Assembly (NCBI RefSeq): GCF_016026235.1
Contig: NZ_CP065613.1
Source: Escherichia coli
GTDB lineage: Bacteria > Pseudomonadota > Gammaproteobacteria > Enterobacterales > Enterobacteriaceae
Reading direction: 5' to 3' (one strand)
DNA length: 64,000 bases
Shown here: positions 35,870 through 36,432 of the stretch, one piece after another
Numbering within the stretch: position 1 is the first letter of the stretch
How the letters are laid out: every line of letters begins with the position of its first letter
Position numbers and translations under genes: made by a program
Notes under the pieces: model-generated
Seen by the model: only the letters and a program-made list of their open reading frames with translations
The model's database searches: none
What the model was told of the DNA's origin: nothing

Positions 35870-36432
35870 TTAACGAGGCTTTTTTTTCCACACCCCTTTA
35901 AATCGAGCAGCATTACTGGCTGTGTATCTGACAGTATGCTGGATATTTCGATGACCCAGATAATCCTGGAGTAGTCGGGTATCGACACCATTGTCAGCCA
36001 GAGCAAAACCACAGGCATGACGTAACATATGAGGATGTGCTTTTACAGCTAATCCTGCACGTTTTCCAGCCTCACGAATGATAGAAAAAAATGTTGTCTG
36101 CTGATAGGGCGGCGTTTCCGGGAGAGAAAAAGCCAGTCTCCTTCAACTCCGTTTTCAATTAACTTCCTCTGCTTAAGCCACGACTTGATCAAATTATATT
36201 CATCAGGAAGAAGAGGATGTGTCGTCGAGAAACCATTTTTAATACGCCGAATATTAAGTTGTTTTCCTGATGCATCAATATCGGATAAACGTAAATCAAG
36301 AAGTTCACTGGCCCTAAAACCGTGAATGAAAGCCATCATAATTAGACAGCGATTTCTTTCAGGAAAGGACATGCTCTGGGCTGCATCCATCAGCCTGTAG
36401 ACTTCATCCTGTGTGAGATATTTTCTCGTCAT
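35870..36432 (-). pseudogene. FimB/FimE-family tyrosine site-specific recombinase with 1-bp frameshift in an A7 (coding-strand T7) tract
   Basis: N-frame MTRKYLTQDEVYRLM...FIHGFRASE...WLFLSRKRRPISRQHFF stops at 36049; next frame continues SIIREAGKRAGLAVKAHPHMLRHACGFALADNGVDTRLLQDYLGHRNIQHTVRYTASNAARFKGVWKKKPR to stop at 35870; tract at 36085..36091. Confidence 0.8.

Follow-up and report, generated by a model that had tools for sequence, protein, structure and literature searches.

What has become of the recombinase gene in a 64,000-nucleotide stretch of Escherichia coli DNA (contig NZ_CP065613.1 of RefSeq assembly GCF_016026235.1; hereafter, the window), in which a homopolymer of seven A residues separates two halves of a coding sequence lying in different frames? 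An initial annotation, made from the DNA letters, had proposed a FimB/FimE-like recombinase hit by a 1-bp deletion in this homopolymer, and had offered three explanations: a genuine pseudogene, a homopolymer sequencing error, or a slippage-prone tract able to turn the recombinase on and off. Our comparison of the locus with other assemblies indicates that the gene is, very probably, a genuine inherited loss-of-function allele of ipbA (also named fimX or hbiF), and that a run of eight T residues in its coding strand is a recurrent mutational hot spot, not a phase-variation switch.

The ipbA frameshift

The order of genes around the feature (betB, betA, ipbA, hyxR, hyxA, hyxB) is that of the island PAI-X, attesting to orthology by position, and its sequence is 99.7% identical to ipbA of strain FDAARGOS_943, which PGAP describes as 'tyrosine-type DNA invertase IpbA ... 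frameshifted'. Judging from position and sequence, the feature corresponds to ipbA, a DNA invertase gene already known from E. coli, in PAI-X (coordinates in Table 1).

On the plus strand the run reads gatag-aaaaaaa-tgttg, and its position was confirmed by a regular expression. When the locus was aligned (alignment A1), eight T residues were seen in the coding strand (T8; A8 on the plus strand) of the intact PapRG-06-5 and CRE287 genes, as had been anticipated for intact orthologues and with the predicted frame relation, whereas the window and FDAARGOS_943 have seven (T7). This comparison bears out the proposed one-base deletion, and the accompanying description of the open reading frames (ORFs) proved exact. 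Backed in this way by homology, the lesion is a specific one, and a chance pattern is ruled out. Mechanistically, replication slippage would have taken one T out of a T8 run spanning codons 115-117; the ribosome would then depart from the frame after Phe116 and terminate 11 codons further on.

The remaining ORF thus comprises 116 native residues, with the catalytic Arg40 among them, followed by 11 out-of-frame residues and the stop. When one A is added to the run, an open 187-aa product is obtained, matching the predicted length and ending in ...SRQHFFSIIREAGKRAGLAVKAHPHMLRHACGFALADNGVDTRLLQDYLGHRNIQHTVRYTASNAARFKGVWKKKPR before the stop (...SRQHFFSIIREAGKRAGLAVKAHPHMLRHACGF...TVRYTASNAARFKGVWKKKPR, stop). 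This restored protein aligns to positions 1-171 of the 172 in the Pfam model Phage_integrase (PF00589; E 1e-50) and scores 253 bits against NCBIfam NF007370 ('tyrosine-type DNA invertase', FimB/FimE-type subfamily), above the curated cut-off of 221; its best NCBIfam matches are models of the FimB/FimE-type subfamily. The 127-aa product, on the other hand, covers only positions 1-118 of the 172 in Phage_integrase and, at 123 bits, falls under the NF007370 cut-off. Only the restored sequence has the whole-length catalytic domain of a small invertase (about 190 aa).

Catalytic residues, numbered as in the restored protein, were mapped by alignment to XerA and XerD. In this alignment HPHMLRH pairs with the H-x-x-R box and LGHRNIQHTVRYT with the His...Tyr box, so the catalytic C-terminal region does lie in the adjacent frame, as had been suggested. 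R40, H135, R138, H161 and Y170 are all encoded, but they are divided between two frames, and the translated product holds R40 alone. Lacking His135, Arg138, His161 and Tyr170, the 127-aa product should therefore be unable to cut or rejoin DNA; while frame and residues are directly apparent, this loss of activity we infer from the general biology of tyrosine recombinases. In terms of its coding capacity, the window ipbA is a pseudogene of the FimB/FimE-type invertase family and not a functional member of it.

The T7 state is not confined to the window. FDAARGOS_943, in which it also occurs, belongs to the same lineage and is a distinct genome: the two share 99.94% identity along 17.5 kb (10 mismatches, one gap), and FDAARGOS_943 carries IS600, ISSfl3 and IS5 insertions that the window does not have. 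Two further assemblies, the draft GCA_002466675.1 and the Logan assembly of SRR17652784, also have T7 and match the window at 100% identity along 1808 and 1581 bp, respectively; the exact 127-aa product of the window, its L84S substitution included, is on record from both. Of the three explanations initially offered, that of a genuine pseudogene is strongly supported.

The L84S substitution just mentioned, due to a TTG to TCG change at position 36182 (ipbA codon 84), is the only residue separating the restored window protein from the common allele (WP_001295805-type, found for example in CFT073). It is private, being missing from FDAARGOS_943 and from all other aligned alleles. Such a substitution is compatible with relaxed constraint after inactivation, though it is a single change.

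Recurrence of the shortened tract

Tract lengths were counted among 1892 ipbA-carrying E. coli records as exact matches of short queries differing in tract length alone. By this measure about 1464 records have A8, so that the gene is in frame in about 77% of the records, while the tract is A7 in 326 and A9 in a single record, A6 being absent. The A7 records are mostly from O157:H7 or O55:H7 strains, and all such records among those listed are A7 (in the Sakai record the gene is labelled 'pseudogene'); 15 A7 records are on the other main haplotype. The form of the truncated product with Leu84 is on record from 655 contigs, and a metagenome scan yielded eight T8 and three T7 contigs. About one in six of the complete E. 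coli genomes with ipbA owes the inactivation of the gene to a single 8-base run, and this event has taken place more than once. The sole A9 record is from the canine strain 317 (NZ_CP023357.1, 3932680-3932768), the allele being given as assembled.

The A7 tract occurs on at least five haplotype backgrounds, each of them near-identical to an A8 allele. With the tract masked, the ipbA genes of EDL933 and of O104:H21 94-3024 show no difference from their nearest T8 counterparts (O145:H28 and O177:H21, respectively); LS4 and DSM 103246 show one difference each, from CFT073 and from PapRG-06-5; and the window shows two, from deer strain 48. The T7 lineages, instead, diverge from each other in the 2.5-kb flank on the betA side, at anything from 60 to more than 200 positions. 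For example, O104:H21 differs in this flank from O177:H21 at 12 positions and from EDL933 at 103. The presence of A7 on several backgrounds near-identical to A8 alleles suggests, therefore, that on an evolutionary time scale the run acts as a hot spot of recurrent mutation, being the most mutable place in the gene. The simplest reading of these data is that T8-to-T7 slippage occurred repeatedly and independently in several E. coli lineages, the O157:H7/O55:H7 clade included.

The O157:H7/O55:H7 pseudogene bears the identical T8-to-T7 lesion in the same run as the window, but the haplotypes differ, by 5-6 positions in ipbA and by more than 140 per 2.5 kb of flank, so the T7 of the window appears to have arisen independently. 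Because each has many or independent assemblies behind it, the T7 alleles of the O157 clade and of the window lineage are, on assembly evidence, beyond doubt. The remaining T7 backgrounds are represented by one strain each.

That lone T7 records call for caution is illustrated by strain EcN_Sk. Its hyx-ipbA island equals that of Nissle 1917 minus three single bases (L028:11831, 12035 and 12403, compared with L029); one of these belongs to the ipbA tract and the other two fall where the locus has its further pair of 8-base runs, while the flanks are about 2% different from Nissle 1917. This pattern has the signature of systematic under-calling, and the T7 of EcN_Sk is probably an assembly artefact; lone T7 records are therefore not to be taken at face value.

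When we scanned outgroups for the exact tract pattern, with one genome per species, no match was found. Three 'divergent' metagenome matches, considered as distant orthologues, turned out to be chimeric contigs, all of low coverage. In one (L012:4091-5700) the 5' part of ipbA runs into the 3' end of fimE, with fimA coming next; in another (L019) it continues into the C-terminal part of a different gene for a Fim-type recombinase, after which stands a fimbrial subunit-like gene; in the third (L011) it is joined to unrelated GC-rich DNA. These joins are most likely assembly chimeras formed via conserved recombinase sequence, real recombination between ipbA and fimE being a less likely source.

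Alternative readings of the T7 allele

Several considerations weigh against reading the allele as a lasting loss of function at a mutational hot spot. The tract of the window was judged from assembled sequence. The number of T7 events above the two or three best supported is uncertain, given that some of the lone T7 records, like that of EcN_Sk, are probably artefacts, and recombination or gene conversion could have spread one T7 mutation over several backgrounds. Furthermore, the shortened run reads CA-U_UUU_UUU-CUA, that is, an X_XXY_YYZ heptamer in zero-frame phase, where a -1 ribosomal slip, or a U added by RNA polymerase, would yield the wild-type protein, identical to the T8 product. Some trace of active enzyme could possibly be made from the T7 allele, and recombinases can work at low dose.

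A broader version of the hot-spot reading would make the T8 run a slow evolutionary 'fuse', whose loss is favoured in some lifestyles and whose T7 form may leak a trace of invertase through -1 slippage. We regard this combination as unlikely. If it were true, the repeated loss in enterohaemorrhagic E. coli O157:H7/O55:H7, in O104:H21 and in the window lineage would be favoured because it freezes both hyxS (the invertible promoter element of hyxR) and fimS (the switch of type 1 fimbriae) in one state.

The leak alone has been considered as well. The T7 allele would be a 'pseudo-pseudogene', in which ribosomal or transcriptional -1 slippage yields some full-length invertase, enough for slow switching. 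As in Shigella mxiE (transcriptional slippage) and dnaX (-1 frameshift), a coding homopolymer stands at the frame change, with the slippery heptamer in phase, and the G run of herpes simplex virus thymidine kinase provides a precedent for an indel offset by low-level frameshifting (PMC5009743). Unlike in mxiE, dnaX and simple-sequence contingency genes, however, the run is only 7-8 bases long, it has no stimulator and the shifted arrangement is not conserved, most orthologues being plainly in frame. In E. coli, heptamers free of stimulators exceed a background of roughly 0.05% by a factor of about ten at the most (PMC4066793), and the efficient transcriptional slippage described in bacteria involves runs of 9 (PMC5009743). 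Folded, the 106-nt stretch from the site reaches -23 kcal/mol, no better than shuffled sequence (z = 0.06), so that stimulated -1 frameshifting was dropped as a candidate, and no Shine-Dalgarno-like (GGAGG-like) stimulator was seen in the sequence upstream of the tract. With neither a downstream structure nor such a stimulator, the expected yield of full-length protein is well under 1%. In the window, moreover, hyxS and hyxR are destroyed regardless (see below). Consequential leakage thus seems very unlikely; if it did occur, a fast switch would have become a very slow one instead of being abolished.

A contingency locus, in which frequent and reversible slippage between T8 and T7 toggles the recombinase within populations, would account for the repeated origin of T7 across different backgrounds and for its presence in 3 of the 11 metagenome contigs. 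It would also agree with the under-representation of U7 and A7 runs in E. coli genes, attributed to their instability (PMC4066793). Yet the tract is constantly A7 in the listed O157:H7/O55:H7 records, and the lengths A9 and A6 are, respectively, found once and not at all. The sole tract difference between near-identical islands, that between EcN_Sk and Nissle 1917, looks artefactual; among the records compared we found no credible variation of tract length within clones, nor variation in both directions among close isolates. In the window, with the neighbouring target of the enzyme gone, there is nothing local for switching to act on. Known phase-variable genes also have tracts far longer than a run of 8 A/T bases in a mismatch-repair-proficient E. 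coli. We therefore consider toggling highly improbable; of the initially proposed slippage-prone on/off tract, the repeated base loss across lineages holds, but the on/off behaviour does not, the tract being constant in the clade just mentioned and A9 near absent.

Least credible of all, at a level that on the assembly evidence is effectively excluded, is that the A7 run is a miscall of sequencing or assembly and that the true genome has A8 and an intact gene: indel errors do fall most often in homopolymers, and all three long homopolymers of the EcN_Sk ipbA locus are one base short with respect to an otherwise identical island, but in our case T7 recurs in FDAARGOS_943 and in two window-identical assemblies, a single gap separates the window from FDAARGOS_943 over 17.5 kb, both remaining 8-base runs (35880..35887 and 36453..36460) are at full length in the window, and the same module bears two further inactivating lesions.

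The hyx module and other features of the window

Intact FimX is known to invert both the neighbouring hyxS and, in trans, fimS; hyxS is a hyxR promoter element with 16-bp inverted repeats, and FimX is described as its only Fim-family inverter (PMC6083910, bioRxiv 10.1101/494401, PMC8777976, PMC7545054). The published inversion activity concerns the T8 allele only (PMC6083910; bioRxiv 10.1101/494401).

In the window, a precise deletion has removed the 271-bp element hyxS and left a single copy of its recombination site. Between the same two anchors, which extend into both ipbA and hyxR, the ipbA-hyxR stretch measures 81 bp in the window vs 352 bp in the presence of hyxS; in CFT073, CRE287 and EDL933, the extra 271 bp lie after the ipbA stop and before the hyxR start. 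In hyxS strains, TGATTCAAAATGTCAG occurs in inverted copies, whose starts are 271 bp from each other. No adjacent invertible promoter element with inverted repeats was found in the window, where the single site copy has no inverted partner. The same single copy is found in FDAARGOS_943 and PapRG-06-5.

Table 1. Coordinates of ipbA, of its parts and of the neighbouring hyx features in the window
Feature	Position	Strand	Remarks
ipbA (= fimX = hbiF), tyrosine-type DNA invertase, frameshifted pseudogene	35870..36432	-	Whole former coding sequence, including stop
Remaining ORF, 127 aa	36049..36432	-	ATG at 36432, stop at 36049; ends ...LSRKRRPISRQHFFLSFVRLENVQD, stop / ...SRQHFFLSFVRLENVQD, stop
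Homopolymer T7 (A7 on plus strand), site of 1-bp deletion	36085..36091	-	T8 in intact alleles
C-terminal coding segment, now in -1 frame, still open	35870..36084	-	Codes His135-x-x-Arg138, His161 and nucleophile Tyr170
Leftover single recombination site (…CTGATTCAAAATGTCAGGTTT…)	35838..35862	-	Between ipbA stop and hyxR start; from alignment A1, intergenic sequences and CFT073 repeats
hyxR (LuxR-type regulator), 5' fragment	35303..35811	-	
IS2, 1331 bp, inside hyxR	33972..35302	+	5-bp target duplication GCAAT; breakpoints vs PapRG-06-5, InsC/InsD ORFs
hyxR, 3' fragment	33681..33971	-	
hyxA (PAI-X), intact ORF	32766..33527	-	Annotation of orthologous loci
hyxB autotransporter (PAI-X), intact ORF	30427..32757	-	Annotation of orthologous loci

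The hyxR-proximal end of hyxS (cf. L026:2999-3306) is a palindrome made of two 13-base arms and one central base, and this yields a third site copy that points the same way as the ipbA-proximal one. The loss of hyxS looks like recombination between two such direct copies, an event that would match the leftover exactly; the agent may have been the invertase itself or repeat-mediated deletion, as the sequence fits either. Sequence internal to hyxS is found in 1803 records vs 1892 for ipbA, and the difference between these two counts puts the share of ipbA carriers without hyxS at roughly 5%. In one metagenome contig (L020), the hyxS junction reads GAATC in place of GATTC; an independent hyxS deletion and a later point change are equally possible, and we do not claim it as independent.

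In the search of complete E. coli genomes, the insertion of IS2 in hyxR was common only to the window and FDAARGOS_943; elsewhere, strains have IS2 or IS3-family insertions at other points of hyxR. All three lesions, namely the ipbA T7 run, the hyxS deletion and the IS2-split hyxR, are also present in FDAARGOS_943. PapRG-06-5, instead, has lost hyxS, yet its ipbA (T8) and its hyxR are both intact, a state compatible with hyxS having been lost first. With three lesions in one module, the whole ipbA-hyxS-hyxR circuit should therefore be dead in the window lineage. The IS600 and ISSfl3 insertions of FDAARGOS_943 had given the idea of a Shigella-like genome decay; this was dropped, the window region having one IS2 only and the long ORFs elsewhere in the window (the ecp operon, eaeH, the ykg and rcl genes) being intact.

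In its position beside betA and in its nucleotide sequence (about 99% identity), the window gene resembles the IpbA/FimX/HbiF genes of uropathogenic and meningitic E. coli (CFT073, UTI89, RS218). Unlike these, it is one T short with the catalytic half out of frame, hyxS is deleted and hyxR contains IS2. The O157:H7 strains differ from the window in keeping hyxS, and in EDL933 hyxR is interrupted by a stop codon instead of IS2; the internal stop is annotated both in EDL933 (L004:2183-2977) and in strain 2017C-4109 (L008:2183-2977), whereas in O55:H7 CB9615 hyxR is intact. It thus appears that the hyx module decays by differing routes across the T7 lineages.

The core fimS invertases FimB and FimE are, like IpbA, small tyrosine invertases of about 190-200 aa consisting of the catalytic domain only. 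Unlike theirs, the ipbA gene is at a different locus, with a different cognate switch, and FimB and FimE are described as not inverting hyxS (PMC6083910).

In the window, then, an accessory invertase able to turn on type 1 fimbriae and to control HyxR is apparently dead, together with its own switch and its target gene. Phase variation of fimS in this strain must therefore depend on FimB and FimE. A practical implication is that typing by presence or absence of 'fimX' as a uropathogen marker would score this strain as falsely positive. The lesion itself is already known, being flagged by PGAP in the nearest relative and in O157:H7 and marked also in the Sakai record, and the kind of event is familiar. 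We found no paper on the hot-spot behaviour of the run or on precise hyxS deletions in the literature covered, which does not include the earliest papers on the gene.

About 20 bases upstream of the ipbA start, on the minus strand, a terminator-like hairpin (AGGCATAC...GTGTGCCT) is followed by a T8 run (36453..36485). The length of this run varies, with T8 in the window, T7 in FDAARGOS_943 and CT6 or CT7 in others. The hairpin is a candidate terminator insulating ipbA, or else part of the ipbA leader.

Finally, off-diagonal BLAST matches to FDAARGOS_943 revealed a tandem repeat of ~93 bp at 55514..55786, with about three copies of about 96% identity. It falls in the region of a small hypothetical gene between yahI and yahG.
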